Of a stretch of DNA of 42,177 nucleotides, positions 13,320-42,095 are shown piece after piece. The stretch is from an uncultured Candidatus Peribacteria bacterium (GTDB taxonomy: Bacteria > Patescibacteriota > Gracilibacteria > Peribacterales > Peribacteraceae). The translations under genes were made by a program, and so were the position numbers. Numbering within the stretch: position 1 is the stretch's first letter; each line of letters starts with the position of its first letter. The stretch lies in the NCBI GenBank assembly GCA_964592265.1, contig CAZQCB010000001.1, positions 1 to 42,177 on the forward strand, read 5' to 3'. The notes below the pieces were generated by a model that saw nothing but the letters and a program-made list of their open reading frames with translations, did no database searches and had not been told where the DNA came from.

Positions 13320-14525
13320 GTGCATATTCTCTTGCTCAATGATGATTCTCCGGTGGAAACCCGGGGAGGCGCAGCAATAATCATTGACCGACTTCGAAGA
13401 GAATTTGTACGCCAAGGACACCGCGTGACACTCATCGTCACTCATCAAGATGGAATCCGAGAAAAAATCGTACGAATGAAGGATGCAGAAGGGGAAATTA
13501 TCAGCCTCTTTCGGGAATATCCGCTCGCAAAGAGAGCGCGGCTCTCCCTTCGAAGTACGGAAATAGAAAATGCGCTTTCGACACTTCTTTCTGAGCTTCG
13601 GCCCAATGTCATCAGTGCTCATAACATCCATACCTACCTCTCCTATGGAAGTTTGGAGACTGCAAAAAAATTCACATCCAAAATTTTTCTCACAGCACAC
13701 GATACATTCCTCGTTTCCTTCGATCGGGTGCGAGGAGAGCGCTATGAGAGAGCGGCACTTCGTGGGGAAGGGTATCGCATGCATCTCTTCGATCACGTGC
13801 AGGTTGCGGGTCGCAAATACTTCCCACTTCGAAATTTCACTATTCGCAAGATTCTTCGAAACACCGGAACGAAAGTCATTGCAATAAGTACTGCGACAAA
13901 AAAAATTTTAGAAGCAAATGGCATCCGAGTCGAGAGTGTCATTCATAATGGGATCGCGGTTACGCTCCCTCGGGAGAAGCCTCAGAGCTCTCATCCGACA
14001 GTGCTTTTCGGGGGACGTGTGAGCCTCGATAAGGGCATTGGGGCACTCCTCGATGCAATGGAACTCGTACTCCAAGAGCTTCCAGAAGCTCAGCTCCTCC
14101 TTGTTGGAGAGAAATCACGGATCGAACCTGAGCTCCAAGGTGTCTCTTCGAGCCTCCGAAGCGCGATTCGTCTCACGGGGTGGCTCTCGCAGGAAGAGTT
14201 GCGCCTTGCATACGCTTCCGCCGATGTCGTCACCACTCCCTCCCTCTACCTCGATAACTTCCCGACGATCAATCTGGAAGCGATGGAAGGAGCAAAGCCC
14301 ATCATCGGAACGTGTTTCGGAGGAACGCCGGAAGTGGTGGAAGATACGGTCACAGGAATCATCCTGCACCCTCGGGATACAAAAAAATTTGCAGATTCAC
14401 TCCTCATGCTCTTGCGGGACCCCACGAAAGCCAAGAAGATGGGGGAAGCGGGAAGAAAGAGGATTGAAGAGCATTTTTCCCTGCACGCTCAGGCAGATGC
14501 GTACCTTCGTCTTTTTCAACAATGA
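13320..14525 (+). CDS. GT4 family glycosyltransferase
   Basis: An N-terminal GGAAIIIDRL and a C-terminal E-x7-E (NLEAMEGAKPIIGTCFGGTPEVVED) are present. The start is uncertain. I prefer GTG13320 (VHILLLNDD) over ATG13206, which would overlap the ABC gene by 66 nt. Confidence 0.8.
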   Translation: MHILLLNDDSPVETRGGAAIIIDRLRREFVRQGHRVTLIVTHQDGIREKIVRMKDAEGEIISLFREYPLAKRARLSLRSTEIENALSTLLSELRPNVISAHNIHTYLSYGSLETAKKFTSKIFLTAHDTFLVSFDRVRGERYERAALRGEGYRMHLFDHVQVAGRKYFPLRNFTIRKILRNTGTKVIAISTATKKILEANGIRVESVIHNGIAVTLPREKPQSSHPTVLFGGRVSLDKGIGALLDAMELVLQELPEAQLLLVGEKSRIEPELQGVSSSLRSAIRLTGWLSQEELRLAYASADVVTTPSLYLDNFPTINLEAMEGAKPIIGTCFGGTPEVVEDTVTGIILHPRDTKKFADSLLMLLRDPTKAKKMGEAGRKRIEEHFSLHAQADAYLRLFQQ

Positions 14526-15175
14526 TCATCACACAACCCGATCGCGTCTTGCTGACAGAACAAATCGCGCGGCACGCCGGAGCTCTCCGCGGAACACTGC
14601 TCGATGTCGGTTCCGGTCGTTCTCGGAGATACGCTTCACTCTTGAAGAATGTCACAAGTTATAAAACACTCGATGCGAGTACCGCCGGAAATCCGGACAT
14701 TGTAGGATCTGCCGAGAAGATCCCCCTTCCCGATGGAAGCATAGACAGTATTCTCTGTACCCAAGTCCTCGAACATGTCCCGCACCCTGCGACAGCCCTT
14801 CAGGAAATGCATCGTGTCTTAAAGAGTGGAGGCTACATCCTCCTCACGGTTCCACAGATGAATGAACTGCATGAGATCCCGCATGATTACTTTCGCTACA
14901 CCTGCTTCGGCCTACGCACGCTCTTCGAAGAAGCGGGCTTCACGATCGAAGCTCTCGAGCAGCGCGGGAAATATCGTGCGACTGCGATGCAGATGCGGAT
15001 TCGCTACCTCATTGACCGCTTCCATCCTTATGAAAACCGTTTTGCGATGCTCCTTCTCGCCCCTCTCACGTATCTCCTCACACACATTGCCATTTTTCTG
15101 GATTCACTCGTTCGGAACGAAGCCTCGAAACGCCATGCCATTGGCTGGTGCGTGCTCGCGACGAAGCCGTCATGA
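14522..15175 (+). CDS. class I SAM-dependent methyltransferase (Methyltransf_11-like)
   Basis: 217 aa. LLDVGSGRS, ILCTQVLEHVPHP and GGYILLTVP are present. ATGA overlap with the previous gene. Confidence 0.85.
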   Translation: MIITQPDRVLLTEQIARHAGALRGTLLDVGSGRSRRYASLLKNVTSYKTLDASTAGNPDIVGSAEKIPLPDGSIDSILCTQVLEHVPHPATALQEMHRVLKSGGYILLTVPQMNELHEIPHDYFRYTCFGLRTLFEEAGFTIEALEQRGKYRATAMQMRIRYLIDRFHPYENRFAMLLLAPLTYLLTHIAIFLDSLVRNEASKRHAIGWCVLATKPS

Positions 15176-15194: not shown

Positions 15195-15218
15195 TACCAA
15201 TTCACTAGTGAATTGGTA
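15195..15218. repeat. 24-nt perfect palindrome TACCAATTCACTAGTGAATTGGTA, copy 1
   Basis: Read directly from the sequence. An identical 26-mer (with G and T flanks) recurs at 39866-39891. This copy spans the gap between convergent genes and supplies the last codons and the TAG stop of wecB. Confidence 0.95.
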
Positions 15219-16341
15219 TTTTCGAAAGCTCCTTCACAATCTCCTCCCCCGCATGGCCACCCCCAAACCCTAGAGTAGTTTCGAGGGACCACGCCTTGGG
15301 AACATTGCTCACGGGAACTCTTGCATAAGTTATTATGGATTTTTTATCTTTCTCGTCATTTAAATTCACAAGCTGATTACCATACTTTAAGGTTATCGGC
15401 CTTTCTGTATTCCTGCGGAGTGTGAAACACTTTATCCCAAGAAAAGCTGTCTCCTCTTGAATGCCTCCCGAATCAGTAATAACAAACTTCGACCGAATCA
15501 TCAGTTTGATAAATGGTAGATATCCCAACGGATCTATACGCCTAATGTATTCCAAAAATTTTGATTGCAATCCAAATCTTTGAATGGCAGCTTGTGTGCG
15601 AAAGTGAACGGGGAATATCAGAGAGCACTCTTTACAAGCAACAGAATTCATAAAATCTATACAGCGTTCTAGATTTTCCTTGTTATCTACGTTACTCGGA
15701 CGATGTAAAGTAACAAGTCCAAAATGCCGTGGCTCCAATTTCTCAAGAGGGGAAGGCAACTTCTGTTTCATAAATACTTCAAAATTTGTTCCACGAGTAG
15801 TCATTCGCATGAGCGTATCAATCATCGTGTTTCCGACGTGGTGCACACCCTTCGTTATTCCTTCATTCTGAAGATTATCCATTCCAGATTGCTCCGTGAC
15901 AAAAAGAAATGCTGAAAGGTGATCGATTGCCTTGCGATTACCCTCCTCGGGCATTGCATCATCGAATGAGCGAAGTCCCGCCTCGACGTGTGCAATGGGA
16001 ATTTTCAGTTCGTGCGCCGCGAGTGCTCCCCCCAATGCCCCGCTCACATCACCGTAGACGAGGACAAGCTCCGGTTGGAGTTTCTTGAGGATAGGGAGTG
16101 CTGCTTCCTTCGTGCGTGCAACGGTATCATCGTTACTCGCTCCTCCCTTCACCCCCAAATTCTCATGGGGTTCTGGAATATTGAGCTCTTTGAAAAAAAT
16201 CTCGGAGAGCAGTGGATCATAGTGTTGGCCTGTATGAATGATGATGTGCTCCCACTTCGGCGCATGCTCTTTGAGAGCATGGTGGAGTGCTGCAAGCTTG
16301 ATAAAGTTAGGTCTGGCCGAAACGATACTCACAATTCTCAT
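15205..16341 (-). CDS. wecB: UDP-N-acetylglucosamine 2-epimerase (non-hydrolysing)
   Basis: 378 aa. MRIVSIVSARPNFIKLA, HTGQHYD and ITDSGGIQEE are present. Confidence 0.9.
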   Translation of the reverse strand: MRIVSIVSARPNFIKLAALHHALKEHAPKWEHIIIHTGQHYDPLLSEIFFKELNIPEPHENLGVKGGASNDDTVARTKEAALPILKKLQPELVLVYGDVSGALGGALAAHELKIPIAHVEAGLRSFDDAMPEEGNRKAIDHLSAFLFVTEQSGMDNLQNEGITKGVHHVGNTMIDTLMRMTTRGTNFEVFMKQKLPSPLEKLEPRHFGLVTLHRPSNVDNKENLERCIDFMNSVACKECSLIFPVHFRTQAAIQRFGLQSKFLEYIRRIDPLGYLPFIKLMIRSKFVITDSGGIQEETAFLGIKCFTLRRNTERPITLKYGNQLVNLNDEKDKKSIITYARVPVSNVPKAWSLETTLGFGGGHAGEEIVKELSKIPIH

Positions 16342-37095: not shown

Positions 37096-39330
37096 TTACA
37101 ACCCCTTCGCAATGAATTCATCCATCTTCGCAATCATGCCTTCGAGGCTGTGACACTCGGCAACGATGCGGTAGAGCTCGTCGGCATTTGTGCCCTGGAA
37201 ATGCTGAATGAACGCAGCAACGGCTTCAGGGGTATCTTCGTCCGGAGCGGAGAGTAAACCAATTGCCTCAGCGTTCTTTTTCGTCGTCACGGGGTAGCAT
37301 CCACAGGTCATTGCCTCAAGCATCGTCTTATCAATGGTCTCACTGGCCATATTGAGAATGAACCGGTGCTGCGGATAGATCTCCTTCAACTGCTCCATGG
37401 GCACCGTGCCGTGGAAGGTGACGCGGGATTCAAGACCCAAGCTCGAAACGAGCTGCCGAAGCTCTGCGACATAATCCGGTTCCGCTGCGATACCGTAGAT
37501 CACCATCGTATATATCTCCGGAAGAAGTTTGAGCGCTCTCAAACTGATTTCCACACGCTTGCTTCGGGATAATCGGTGCACGACGAGAAGTTCATGTGGA
37601 TTTCCTGTGACACTCGGTCGCTTCTTCCAGAAATCGAGGTCAATGCCATGACCAGTTACAATCTTCTTCGGTGATCCCTCATACTGAGGCAAGCTCTGTG
37701 CAGTCGCACAGAAAAAGCGTTTCCCAAAGAGGCCGAAGAGGAAGACTCCGAGCTGCATCTTGTAGTGCGTGTACCAGAGGTAGACCGGAATGCCTTTGAG
37801 GAGCCACCACCAAAACCCAAGCGTATACCACACGGGAGACATATGGATGAAGACGCGGTCGTATTGGAGGGAGAAAATATATTTGTAGAAGGACAGAATT
37901 TGCCGGATCTTGCCGAATCTGCGTTCCTTTCCCATGGAGAAAACCTGTCGCACGTCACTCCGTGACGTGTGCTGCATGTCGCGGAGCGACATGCGACTAT
38001 TCTCCAGGCAGAGCACCTGAACGGTATATCCCTTCCTCTCAAAAGCCCTTACCCAGAGCTCGACGAACGCATCCTGTGTGTGCATCTTTTGGGTGATGAA
38101 GAGCAATGAAAGTTTCTTCGGAGAGGAAAGATTTTTCAGGAACTCTGCGTATTTCTGCACAGCTTCACCGGGAGCGAAACGGGAGAGGACTTCTTTTCTT
38201 GCACGCTCCCCCATTGCCCTCGTGGAAGAAAAATCACCAAGGAGCACCTGCAATTTCTCTGAAAGATTTTTTGCTGAACCATCCGTGAACTTCACAAGCT
38301 CACCATCCTCCCCAAACTGTGGCATGATCCCCACTCTCGTCGTGACCACGGGCATCCCGAGCGCCATCGCTTCGATGGCGACACGGGGATTCCCTTCACT
38401 TCGGGAATTCACAAGGAAAATTTTCCCTCGCTGCATTTCCCGGTACACGTCACGTTGCTCCGGAAGCCATCCTGCGAATGTCACACGATCATCGATCCCG
38501 AGAGATCTTGCCTTGTCCTCCAGACGTGCTCGTTCTGGCCCATCACCGATGAGAAGGAGTGAAACCCCCTTCAAAGATGAAATAGCCTGGAGTACCTCAA
38601 AAAGCCCTTTATTGGCCGTAAGACGCGCGCAAGCTACAACGTCGTACTCCTCCCTTATGGAGGGGCCTGGCATGAGCGCAGAGGCATCCAGGTAGAGGGA
38701 AGGCACAATCTCGACTTTCGCTTGCGGGATTCCCCACTGCATCAGTTTCTCCTCTACTTCATTATTCACGGTTCGCACCTTGGCGGCAGCCCGCACCGTT
38801 GCTTTGAAAAAAAATGGCCAGTGATACATCCACCGTCCAATGCGTTCCTGTAAAGACGCAGCCGTGGGATATCCCACGATGTGATGTACCTCAACTCCAT
38901 AGGGAGTGCGAGTCACACGATGCAACCACCGCGCACCAATCCCGTTATAAAACGGCGGGTAGTCGTGAACTGTCATCACCCAGTCCGGCATCTTCTTGCT
39001 TTTCAAAAGTTCTTTCCCTTTCTTGAGAATGAAGAAAGGTTGGTACCACAGCCTGTGAGGAGAAGAGTGGAAGAAAACATTCGGCAAATCCGAAATCCGA
39101 AATCCGAAATCCGAAACAAATTCGAAATTCGAATTTCGTGCTTCGTGCTTGTTTCGAATTTCGTGCGGAGCTTGTCCTGAGCCTTGTCGAAGGGTGCTTC
39201 GGATTTCTACTCTTGGGCAGATAATTTCGATTCTCTCAAAATGTTTCGAAAGTTCTTCCAAGGTGTAATAGAAAGCACCCTTCTTGCCGGAAGAGACTGA
39301 TCTGTCGCCGGAAATCATCAGAAGATTCAT
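37096..39330 (-). CDS. two-module GT4 glycosyltransferase fusion
   Basis: 744 aa. Module 1 contains FLVNSRSEGNPRVAIEAMALGMPVVTT. Module 2 contains ILNMASETIDKTMLEAMTCGCYPVTT. ATGA overlap with the upstream gene. Confidence 0.8.
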   Translation of the reverse strand: MNLLMISGDRSVSSGKKGAFYYTLEELSKHFERIEIICPRVEIRSTLRQGSGQAPHEIRNKHEARNSNFEFVSDFGFRISDLPNVFFHSSPHRLWYQPFFILKKGKELLKSKKMPDWVMTVHDYPPFYNGIGARWLHRVTRTPYGVEVHHIVGYPTAASLQERIGRWMYHWPFFFKATVRAAAKVRTVNNEVEEKLMQWGIPQAKVEIVPSLYLDASALMPGPSIREEYDVVACARLTANKGLFEVLQAISSLKGVSLLLIGDGPERARLEDKARSLGIDDRVTFAGWLPEQRDVYREMQRGKIFLVNSRSEGNPRVAIEAMALGMPVVTTRVGIMPQFGEDGELVKFTDGSAKNLSEKLQVLLGDFSSTRAMGERARKEVLSRFAPGEAVQKYAEFLKNLSSPKKLSLLFITQKMHTQDAFVELWVRAFERKGYTVQVLCLENSRMSLRDMQHTSRSDVRQVFSMGKERRFGKIRQILSFYKYIFSLQYDRVFIHMSPVWYTLGFWWWLLKGIPVYLWYTHYKMQLGVFLFGLFGKRFFCATAQSLPQYEGSPKKIVTGHGIDLDFWKKRPSVTGNPHELLVVHRLSRSKRVEISLRALKLLPEIYTMVIYGIAAEPDYVAELRQLVSSLGLESRVTFHGTVPMEQLKEIYPQHRFILNMASETIDKTMLEAMTCGCYPVTTKKNAEAIGLLSAPDEDTPEAVAAFIQHFQGTNADELYRIVAECHSLEGMIAKMDEFIAKGL
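39086..39207. repeat. heptamer-periodic nested-palindrome element (AAATCCG x4 etc.), in-frame in CDS
   Basis: Read directly. There are four perfect heptamers at 39086-39113 and a 16-nt palindrome at 39123-39138. A 12/13 stem pairs 39105-39117 with 39151-39163. TTCGGATTTC at 39198-39207 pairs with the heptamer units. Confidence 0.9.
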
Positions 39331-40502
39331 CGTGTGCGCGAGAGAGTGAGAAATTCTTCCGCAACATCGTTCCAGGTTCGCTTTGGAGGAGGCGAAGCAG
39401 AGGCTGTAGCATACATATCGTATTCTTTCTCTACTTCTTCAATTGCAGCTACGATCTCTTGAACAGTCAAAAGATCACGGAGAATCATTCCTTGAGAAAG
39501 GGCGCTGCTTAAGCCCGTCTCCTTCGTAAGGAGCACAGGGAGACCCGCTGCACGCGCTTCAAGCGCTACATTAGGGCTCATTTCGGTAACGGAAGGGAGA
39601 ACCAGGAGATCGTGCTCCGCGAACACTTCCTGTTTTTCTTCACCGTGCGCCGGGGGGTAGAATGTCACAATGTTCTGCAACTGAAGTTTTGCCACAAGAA
39701 AACGTAAGGAGCTCTCCACAGGTCCCTCACCGACAAAGGTCAGCGTTGCCCTTCCATGGTCATTCTTCAGAGCGACAACAAACGTGAGCAAATTTTTGAA
39801 TCCCACGAACCTCCCCATGAAAAGAAGGCGAAATGGATCGTGCTTCTTATGTTCTTCAGCCTTACGTACCAATTCACTAGTGAATTGGTATATTTGTTCT
39901 GGTAGGGCATTCTCAATCACAGAATGTTTCGGGAGATCCTTGTAATGCTTTTCATAGAGCTTTTCTTGAAACCGTGTAGAAAAGACGATGTGATCGAACG
40001 TACGAAGCATCAATCGCGAAACGAAAAACGAAAAACGAAAAACGAGCGAACGTTCTTCATACCATTCTCTCAAGCTCTTCATTCCCCCTCTATCCGTATA
40101 CCGCTCCCAGAAGAAATCCCCGCCAAGCCGAAGCAGCAGCTTCGGCTTGCCCCGAGCGAAGCCGAGGGGCGAGCACATGCGCCAGAGCATAATCGGCACG
40201 CCACAACTTACCGAGGAGAAAGCAACAATGACATCTGCATCGACCGCATGTTGTTTGAGCGCCTTTGCATACCTCCACCATCGAAGTAGCGGCCCACCCA
40301 ACTTTGCCACATGAATCACGGGCCAATCTTCTTTGGAAATTGGAAATTGGAATTTGGGATTTGGGATTTGGTGCTTCGGCACATACGTCACCACCTTCAC
40401 CTCATTCCCCTTCTTCGTAAATTCCTCCGCAAGTGCCTGCACATAAGTCGCGGGACCGCCAATATCAGGTGGATAGATGCCTGTAGCGAGGACGATCTTC
40501 AT
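39327..40502 (-). CDS. GT4 family glycosyltransferase
   Basis: 391 aa. MKIVLATGIYPPDIGGPATY and LVLPSVTEMSPNVALEARAAGLPVLLT are present. Confidence 0.85.
   Translation of the reverse strand: MKIVLATGIYPPDIGGPATYVQALAEEFTKKGNEVKVVTYVPKHQIPNPKFQFPISKEDWPVIHVAKLGGPLLRWWRYAKALKQHAVDADVIVAFSSVSCGVPIMLWRMCSPLGFARGKPKLLLRLGGDFFWERYTDRGGMKSLREWYEERSLVFRFSFFVSRLMLRTFDHIVFSTRFQEKLYEKHYKDLPKHSVIENALPEQIYQFTSELVRKAEEHKKHDPFRLLFMGRFVGFKNLLTFVVALKNDHGRATLTFVGEGPVESSLRFLVAKLQLQNIVTFYPPAHGEEKQEVFAEHDLLVLPSVTEMSPNVALEARAAGLPVLLTKETGLSSALSQGMILRDLLTVQEIVAAIEEVEKEYDMYATASASPPPKRTWNDVAEEFLTLSRTR
39867..39890. repeat. 24-nt perfect palindrome TACCAATTCACTAGTGAATTGGTA, copy 2
   Basis: Identical to 15195-15218. 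Here it is read in-frame as YQFTSELV inside the GT4 gene. Confidence 0.95.
40017..40049. repeat. heptamer tandem repeat CGAAAAA x3 with degenerate flanks
   Basis: The sequence reads CGAAA CGAAAAA CGAAAAA CGAAAAA CGAGCGA. It encodes RSLVFRFSFFVS on the minus strand. Confidence 0.9.
40122..40151. repeat. GC-rich hairpin (11/12-bp stem, 6-nt loop) inside CDS
   Basis: The sequence reads GCCAAGCCGAAG-cagcag-CTTCGGCTTGCC. Confidence 0.8.
40336..40377. repeat. heptamer array GAAATTG x2, GAATTTG, GGATTTG x2, GTGCTTC
   Basis: Read directly. It follows the same ordered unit series as 39124-39151 and ends in GGTGCTTCGG, as at 39195-39202. It encodes KHQIPNPKFQFPIS. Confidence 0.9.
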
Positions 40503-42016: not shown

Positions 42017-42029
42017 GTCCCTGCGAAGA

Positions 42030-42090
42030 GAATTAAGAATCAAGAATTACGAATTAAGGGTCCTAATTCTGAATTCCTAATTCCTACTTC
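42030..42090. promoter_or_regulatory. 4+4 inverted heptamer array (GAATTNN x4, GGGTC, NNAATTC x4)
   Basis: The array reads GAATTAA GAATCAA GAATTAC GAATTAA gggtc CTAATTC TGAATTC CTAATTC CTACTTC. 21 of 28 arm positions are complementary. It sits between the two divergent -10 boxes. Confidence 0.8.
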
Positions 42091-42095
42091 CCCTC

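Follow-up and report, generated by a model that had tools for sequence, protein, structure and literature searches.

A perfect 24-nt palindrome in a Peribacteria genome, a candidate operator of a TrpR-like protein with copies inside genes

Short palindromes that occur in few to tens of near-exact copies, and that can sit in coding sequence, include parS (ParB), matS (MatP) and the sites of SlmA and Noc. Transcription factors of the TrpR family bind 20-bp palindromes, the half-site in E. coli being GNACT (PMC9413887). Two further systems concern repeats rather than regulation. REP elements are imperfect extragenic hairpins with a GTAG head, present in many copies and associated with Y1 (PF01797) transposases of the RAYT kind, and Rickettsia palindromic elements (RPEs) are recognised as in-frame insertions relative to orthologues. 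Here we describe a perfect 24-nt palindrome, TACCAATTCACTAGTGAATTGGTA, from an uncultured Peribacteria bacterium, which has features of both kinds: it is probably the binding site of a TrpR-like protein, and copies of it lie in frame within genes. We refer to the whole 42,177-nt stretch of DNA that was analysed as the window.

Four copies of the palindrome in one genome

The window is contig C1 of an assembly (G000) of 919,655 bp in 94 contigs, 80% complete and with a G+C content of 54.6%, whose proteins have closest homologues that carry the names Peribacteria, Peribacteraceae or Peregrinibacteria. Within the window there are exactly two perfect matches to the palindrome, at 15195-15218 and 39867-39890, where none is expected, and a 5′ G and a 3′ T flank both, extending the identity to 26 nt. 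No third match exists in the window at up to 3 mismatches and there were no matches in 100 dinucleotide shuffles, which bears out an initial sequence-only reading that the recurrence is not random. The copies lie away from contig ends and the same 24-mer is found in independent metagenome assemblies; therefore, an assembly or vector artefact is very unlikely as its source. Searching the source genome added two degenerate copies, CCCCAATTCACTAGTGAATTGATA (C30:5610-5633) and CACCCATTCACTAGTGAATGGGTA (C89:521-544), the latter with an A-to-C change in one arm that is mirrored in the other. Both have decayed at the outer positions; by comparison the window copies, still perfectly identical over 26 nt, appear to be recent. 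The central CTAG is a tetramer depleted 9-fold in G000 (369 observed vs about 3500 expected). ACTAGT occurs there 15 times, with 10 occurrences outside crude long-ORF gene calls and 5 being TrpR-type palindromes.

Copy 1 (TACC-AATTC-ACTAGT-GAATT-GGTA) lies in the spacer of two convergent genes. One is a SAM-dependent methyltransferase gene (14522-15175, plus strand), whose stop is 20 nt ahead of the palindrome; the other is the low-G+C gene of a UDP-GlcNAc 2-epimerase (wecB; PF02350, Epimerase_2; 15205-16341, minus strand), whose 3′ end the palindrome makes. Read on the minus strand, copy 1 is ATA CCA ATT CAC TAG, giving the last four wecB codons and the TAG stop (IPIH-stop), as the sequence-only reading had claimed. 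Homologues of wecB vary in the length of their C-terminus, and the palindrome simply provides a gene end. It had also been placed at the edge of a low-G+C patch, and G+C is indeed 0.39-0.46 in wecB against 0.53-0.54 in the adjoining gene. We rejected this step as a recombination junction, since it merely coincides with the gene border. Further into wecB (window 15255-15285), a 9-residue insertion, SLETTLGFG, missing in 15 homologues, is encoded by a CTAG-containing quasi-palindrome, CCCTAGAGTAGTTTCGAGGG.

Copy 1 was at first also thought to be a possible bidirectional terminator. Folded, the palindrome gives a stem of 10-11 bp closed by 4 loop nucleotides (z about -3 to -4), TTTT stands behind copy 1, several members of the palindrome family lie between convergent genes, and copy 2 is called terminator-like, on the plus strand only. 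However, the scan does not call copy 1, and at copy 2, which is mid-gene, only antisense RNA would end. Where an intrinsic terminator has a G+C-rich stem and a T tract, the stem here is A+T-rich (3 G-C pairs of 10-11; about -12 to -15 kcal/mol), only 4 T follow copy 1, and there are no T runs at the copies downstream of TrpR-like genes described below. Moreover, the centre is itself palindromic and kept as ACTAGT, neither of which a loop needs. A hairpin acting as an intrinsic (bidirectional) terminator or as an RNA stability element is thus highly improbable.

Copy 2 is located within a GT4 glycosyltransferase gene (39327-40502, minus strand) and, as had been read from the letters, is translated in frame (YQFTSELV). 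The 8 added codons are residues 205-212 of the protein and fall in the linker exactly between its two Rossmann-type domains, Glyco_transf_4 (14-199) and Glycos_transf_1 (215-364). The closest homologues (57-66% identical, alignment A1) are without these residues: the linker reads ENALPE-QIYQFTSELVRKAE-EHKKHDPF here and ENALPA-GTPV-RHQKHDPF in most of the 18 aligned homologues. The linker is variable and the excess over most of these homologues is 8-10 residues, the 10-residue excess arising because of the 8 palindrome codons.

Two identical dyad-symmetric sites, one of them exactly at a domain boundary, might be a pair of site-specific recombination sites, serving inversion or excision of the 24.6-kb segment between them or shuffling of GT4 domains. 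We regard this as exceedingly improbable. Homology of the GT4 to its relatives is continuous across the copy 2 site, on which ground a domain swap or recombination junction in the GT4 was rejected, and with it the recombination scar that the sequence-only reading had entertained. Moreover, neither gene would survive an inversion, the sites have no associated recombinase, and single copies are present on other contigs too.

The copy on C30 is read in a second frame as NINSLVNW, immediately behind the lipobox Cys of an alpha/beta-hydrolase lipoprotein, and the copy on C89 is intergenic. Tabulated by position, the 4 copies in G000 therefore comprise the end of wecB, the GT4 in frame, the C30 lipoprotein in frame and the C89 spacer, with 2-3 of them within ORFs. 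All three reading frames are used among them, the TAG-containing frame at the gene end only.

Heptamer tandem arrays lie in or near GT4 genes of the window (39086-39138, 40019-40045, 40332-40371 and 42029-42091). The arm heptamer of the palindrome, GAATTGG, had been taken for a unit of the same type, but the array units are AAATCCG, AAACGAA, TTTGGAA, AGAATTA and TCCTAAT, unrelated in sequence to the palindrome, and GAATTGG shows no enrichment in the window (6 vs 8 expected).

A TrpR-like gene behind the palindrome in related contigs

The 20-mer core of the palindrome, CCMATTCACTAGTGAATKGG, was absent from 60 related genomes even with 3 mismatches allowed, and had no match in 596 Gb of reference genomes or in viral contigs. 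Only 4 metagenome contigs contain this core (L010, L011, L012 and L013). L012 and L013 were rejected as related loci, being one unrelated stretch with iteron-like arrays; at L012 9100-9200 (L013 holds the same stretch on the reverse strand) TTCACT recurs at about 9-13 nt spacing around a CCAATTCACTAGTGAATGGG site, possibly the origin of a plasmid or phage. The full 24-mer is present in L010 and L011, both from one metagenome. No TrpR-like gene was found on L010. L011 is 72-76% identical to contig C5 of G000, and on it the 24-mer forms the middle of a longer perfect palindrome (30 nt) at -49 to -19 of a gene encoding a 175-aa protein, P0242. This protein scores 31.7 bits against Pfam Trp_repressor (PF01371), for which the cut-off is 27; TrpR-like proteins reach modest Pfam scores of 31.7-42 bits, and NCBIfam scores are below cut-off.

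Homologues of P0242 are rare, only 15 being found at E ≤ 1e-10 among 5.8 billion proteins. Contigs were fetched for 7 of these (L071-L077), and each has a related palindrome upstream of the gene. In L071 (99% identical to P0242) it is the 30-mer with one mismatch. L072 (81%) has TGTACCAATTCACTAGTGAATTGGTACA upstream and ATACCAATTCACTAGTGAATTGGTAT 360 nt downstream, between convergent genes, and L073 (62%) has ACACCAATTCACTAGTGAATTGGTGT upstream and, 22 nt past the stop, ATACCCATTCACTAGTGAATGGGTAT, which is the C89 variant. The site ahead of the gene is ATACCAGTATACTAGTATACTGGTAT in L076 (60%), with an imperfect copy directly past the stop, and a 34-nt palindrome with the core CCCATTTACTAGTAAATGGG in L074 (56%), with an imperfect copy about 60 nt past the stop. 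L075 (55%) combines TGTACCCATGTACTAGTACATGGGTACA upstream with a mirrored T-to-C / A-to-G variant downstream, and L077 (53%) has TACGTACTAGTACGTA upstream. A second, downstream copy is thus found in 5 homologue contigs (L072, L073, L074, L075 and L076, imperfect in L074 and L076), and none was seen downstream in L071 or L077. In L011, L071, L072, L073, L074, L075, L076 and G019:C60 the upstream site falls at -3 to -80 of the TrpR-like gene; this location in the promoter region of a TrpR-family gene is found in relatives and not in G000. Small ORFs without a Pfam hit lie behind the TrpR-like gene within the cassette in L011 (1207-1689, minus strand) and L072 (1570-1806).

These sites share the form TACC-N5-ACTAGT-N5-GGTA, in which ACTAGT at the core and ACC/GGT at the outside do not change. 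Differences within the N5 blocks are nearly always mirror images; relative to the window copy 49 changes are mirrored in both arms and 15 are unmirrored, counts that are not phylogenetically independent. The pattern ACC-N5-ACTAGT-N5-GGT is present in 2 of 61 Peribacteraceae genomes, G000 and G019, and among the 60 relatives searched it is G019 only that has a P0242-clade gene.

AlphaFold predicts an all-helical P0242 (pLDDT 76). The top Foldseek matches of this model in the PDB, with weak E-values (0.04-0.2), are without exception TrpR or TrpR-like chains, among them those of the operator complexes 1tro and 1trr, and a sequence search of the PDB returned the same family. The clade proteins, of 150-185 aa, have the TrpR fold together with a conserved C-terminal motif, SFRxLRKRYPxHFLLxNLLL. 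Members with an ACTAGT core have the recognition helix GQ(A/D)T(V/I), which we take to resemble GIATI of E. coli. A recognition-helix code was not established; GQ(A/D)T and an ACTAGT core coincide in 3 of 4 cases, no more than a hint.

The site is dyad-symmetric and perfect over 24 nt, within the about 18-24 bp of an operator, and the associated protein carries both the fold and the family signature of TrpR (Pfam score above cut-off, Foldseek hits). On this comparative evidence, the palindrome is probably the cognate operator of a homodimeric TrpR-family HTH protein from a rare Peribacterial clade, with copies inserted at tolerated positions. In relatives it covers the promoter region of the gene for the regulator itself, where it would mediate autorepression, and a second copy often follows shortly after the gene. 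The copies in G000 would be dispersed 'orphans', derived from insertion of a short sequence wherever this was tolerated, namely at a gene end (where the third frame gives TAG), in an interdomain linker, in a lipoprotein tether and in an intergenic spacer. With 90% of the genome coding, only loops, tethers, gene ends and spacers would tolerate an insertion, and the copies lie in just such places. We infer that the TrpR-like protein binds the site; at the two window sites binding would at most hinder or delimit transcription of wecB and the GT4, as a roadblock or boundary. The cognate gene may sit in the unassembled 20% of G000, because such repeats end contigs (C34, L073 and L075). Among the roles that the sequence-only reading had offered, a protein-binding site fits best and the insertion behaviour does resemble that of a minimal palindromic element, leaving the recombination scar as the one that did not stand.

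The 24-28-nt identity and the mirrored variation outside the core exceed what a dimeric repressor demands, therefore a hairpin or copy process is also at work beside repressor binding. The mirrored non-core variation points to a symmetrising process, of which quasi-palindrome template switching is a documented example (PMC7202029). Hairpin-templated (quasi-palindrome) correction of this kind may keep the arms symmetric.

Paralogues with their own palindromes and other repeat families

No P0242-clade gene was found in the 80%-complete G000 assembly, and both window copies are distant from any TrpR-like gene. The best matches are two paralogues, each 43% identical, which are preceded by CCATTCACCTATTAATAGGTGAATGG (C3:16012) and CCAGTATAATGTTATACTGG (C32:4031). 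Full-length members are patchy among 60 Peribacteraceae genera, with for example 6 in G078 and 3 in G029, and nearly every member is preceded, at -30 to -80, by a long palindrome of its own, perfect or nearly so. A perfect palindrome of at least 14 nt lies within 100 nt upstream of 17 of the 24 TrpR-like genes examined, compared with 2.2% of G000 genes, and most of the remaining TrpR-like genes have a near-perfect one. The putative operators of paralogues are also dispersed, as exact copies of 18-28 nt. There are 7 exact copies of CAGTATACTAGTATACTG in G019, the two flanks of the gene included, and 5 of CACTACCATATAACGTTATATGGTAGTG in G078, mostly in short intergenic spacers beside unrelated housekeeping genes. 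Moreover, a palindrome of G019's own class is read in frame (YQCTSILI) in another GT4 loop, where G019 has 6-8 residues more than 11 homologues that lack it. In-frame insertion relative to orthologues, as in RPEs, is therefore seen in the window GT4 and in that of G019, and the lipoprotein tether also holds a copy.

Two further sites in G000 resemble those of paralogues. At C5:6341-6372 a solo palindrome, TGCCTATACACCCATTAATAGGTGTATAGGCA, a mirrored variant of the operator ahead of the C3 paralogue, lies between convergent genes where L011 has the TrpR-like cassette. On C77 (L056 1261-1280) a DUF4015 glycosyl-hydrolase-like ORF contains TCAGTATACTAGTATACTGA in frame in its N-terminal part (aa 119-125); this has exactly the sequence of the G019 paralogue's operator core.

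Could selection maintain the copies as cis-regulatory sites of a surface-glycan regulon? If so, the TrpR-like protein would block elongation in the GT4 or at the wecB end, or control antisense transcription from a flanking TGGTATATT-like extended -10. Glycan-related hosts do recur (wecB, the GT4 and the DUF4015 hydrolase in G000, the GT4 in G019), one G078 copy has a GDP-mannose-dehydratase-like gene on one side and a GT4 on the other, the window copies are both perfect, and the right flank of copy 2 is TGGTATATT. However, other sites adjoin unrelated housekeeping genes (aminoacyl-tRNA synthetases, RsmF, sortase, DCD and RibD), and a coherent regulon was rejected on account of these neighbours in G019 and G078. 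Furthermore, the outer positions of the C30 and C89 copies are decaying, the assembly is without the cognate regulator, and no evident promoter was found at any of the 4 G000 copies, scans calling none at either window copy. We consider such a regulon unlikely. The lack of an evident promoter at these 4 copies and of a coherent set of neighbours in G019 and G078 also counts against the operator reading itself, as does the failure to find a P0242-clade gene in G000.

G000 is rich in palindromes generally, with 52 perfect ones of at least 18 nt in several families, compared with about 2.7 in shuffles. Family A, a perfect palindrome of 34-38 nt, CATGGGAGGrrAACCTATAGGTTyyCCTCCCATG, has about 14 copies, and its arms co-vary; a CCCACC box stands on one side and the copies are mostly intergenic beside gene starts or ends (e.g. 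C3:20019-20056, C15:7777-7814 and C23:7894-7931). Family B is a 28-nt perfect palindrome, GTAGGGGCGTAGCGCGCTACGCCCCTAC, in about 8-9 copies including mirrored variants, half of them inside long ORFs, and has a REP-like GTAG head at both ends (e.g. C2:32666-32693, C10:13858-13885 and C26:7468-7495). Family C, with the core ACTATTCGCGCGAATAGT, has about 9 copies, for example at 121-152 and 545-574 of C89 (L004) and at 1508-1537 of C77 (L056); the two on C89 bracket a small non-regulator gene and one directly abuts the family-D palindrome. The genome also encodes a 175-aa Y1_Tnp (RAYT/IS200-like) protein (L070, G000:C77:1686-3675, at 1249-1776). At about 1204-1235 and 1778-1807 its gene has inverted GTAG-headed hairpins, GTAGAGACGGCC-GAAA-GGCCGTCTC, and gene and hairpins together look like a REP/RAYT pair in a CPR genome.

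Given this abundance of palindromes and the hairpin-flanked Y1_Tnp gene, the 24-mer might be a protein-independent selfish hairpin of the REP/MITE kind, moved in trans, for instance by the Y1 transposase of G000, with the TrpR-like neighbour incidental. Its insertion pattern is like that of RPE and REP elements. Nevertheless, one protein clade is specifically and repeatedly associated with the site, on at least 8 independent contigs, and G019, which is 100% complete and has 7 dispersed copies, is without a Y1_Tnp match. The 24-mer has neither GTAG head nor loop, is not a many-copied imperfect extragenic hairpin (4 copies only) and is not associated with a Y1 transposase. Mobilisation by the RAYT was rejected, since the Y1_Tnp gene on C77 has its own, different GTAG hairpins and G019 has no such gene. 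We therefore judge a selfish hairpin of this kind quite improbable. As regards a Tc1/IS630-type MITE, which would have terminal inverted repeats, a TA target duplication and a cognate DDE transposase, the flanking TA...TA belongs to the conserved palindrome throughout the clade, and no transposase was identified save for a chance-level IS630 HTH match (E=0.033).

Returning to a palindrome that belongs to its TrpR-like protein, it is possible, if rather doubtful, that gene and perfect palindrome form a self-propagating pair, a 'repeat plus guardian protein' in which RAYT-REP logic is carried out on an HTH repressor fold. Copies of the site would then spread through the genome, some of them landing in frame in surface-glycan genes, and hairpin-templated correction would keep the arms perfectly symmetric. 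Pairs of paralogue and site would diversify fast, and the gene cassette would come and go at syntenic positions.

Implications and comparison with known systems

Genomes of the CPR are tiny and have very few known regulators, and here there is a diversifying TrpR-like family, each member paired with its own long perfect palindrome. Operator-type sites can be inserted as 18-24-nt units in coding sequence, in glycosyltransferase loops, a lipoprotein tether and a stop-creating gene end, which links two usually separate things, transcription-factor binding sites and miniature insertion elements. The Peribacteria genome paper makes no mention of such palindromes, and dispersed operator-type copies inside genes appear to be a new element. 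We predict that the 24-mer is bound by the TrpR-like protein, that the cognate gene lies in the unassembled part of G000 and that members of the population differ in whether they have the 24-nt insert. The palindromes may moreover serve as a natural case for the study of how perfect dyad symmetry persists.

A close likeness is that to E. coli TrpR and its operators (PDB 1TRO, 1TRR) and to the HisR/YerC branch (PMC9413887), which share with the clade a small dimeric HTH protein of TrpR fold and an approximately 20-bp dyad-symmetric site over the protein's own promoter. The core is likewise of ACTAGT/GNACT type, and the clade members L075 and L077 even have GTACTAGTAC. Compared with E. coli TrpR, however, the clade protein is 150-185 aa long with a conserved C-terminal extension, and in its site the dyad axis runs through ACTAGT, while TACC/GGTA at the outer ends is conserved. 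The clade sites are perfect over 24-34 bp with mirrored variation, and exact copies of them are dispersed, coding sequences included. A genome may have as many as 6 diversified paralogues, every one paired with a palindrome of its own, and no tryptophan or histidine genes are involved.

REPs and their RAYT (Y1) transposases (REPINs) are alike in that every clade of the gene goes with a palindromic repeat family of its own, members of which often stand on both sides of the gene, and extra copies are scattered, often between convergent genes. In contrast, the TrpR-like protein has an HTH repressor fold and no HUH/Y1 domain, and its repeats are without GTAG head or loop, have a very low copy number (2-7) and lie in some cases inside genes. 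RPEs share with the 24-mer a palindromic repeat that lies in frame in genes at tolerant loops and is translated. The 24-mer is not of the RPE sequence family, being unrelated in sequence and 24 nt rather than 100-150 nt long; it is linked to the gene of a specific DNA-binding protein and it belongs to another phylum (CPR). Lastly, relative to the parS, matS, SlmA and Noc sites, the proteins are unrelated, and here there are many pairs of paralogue and site.
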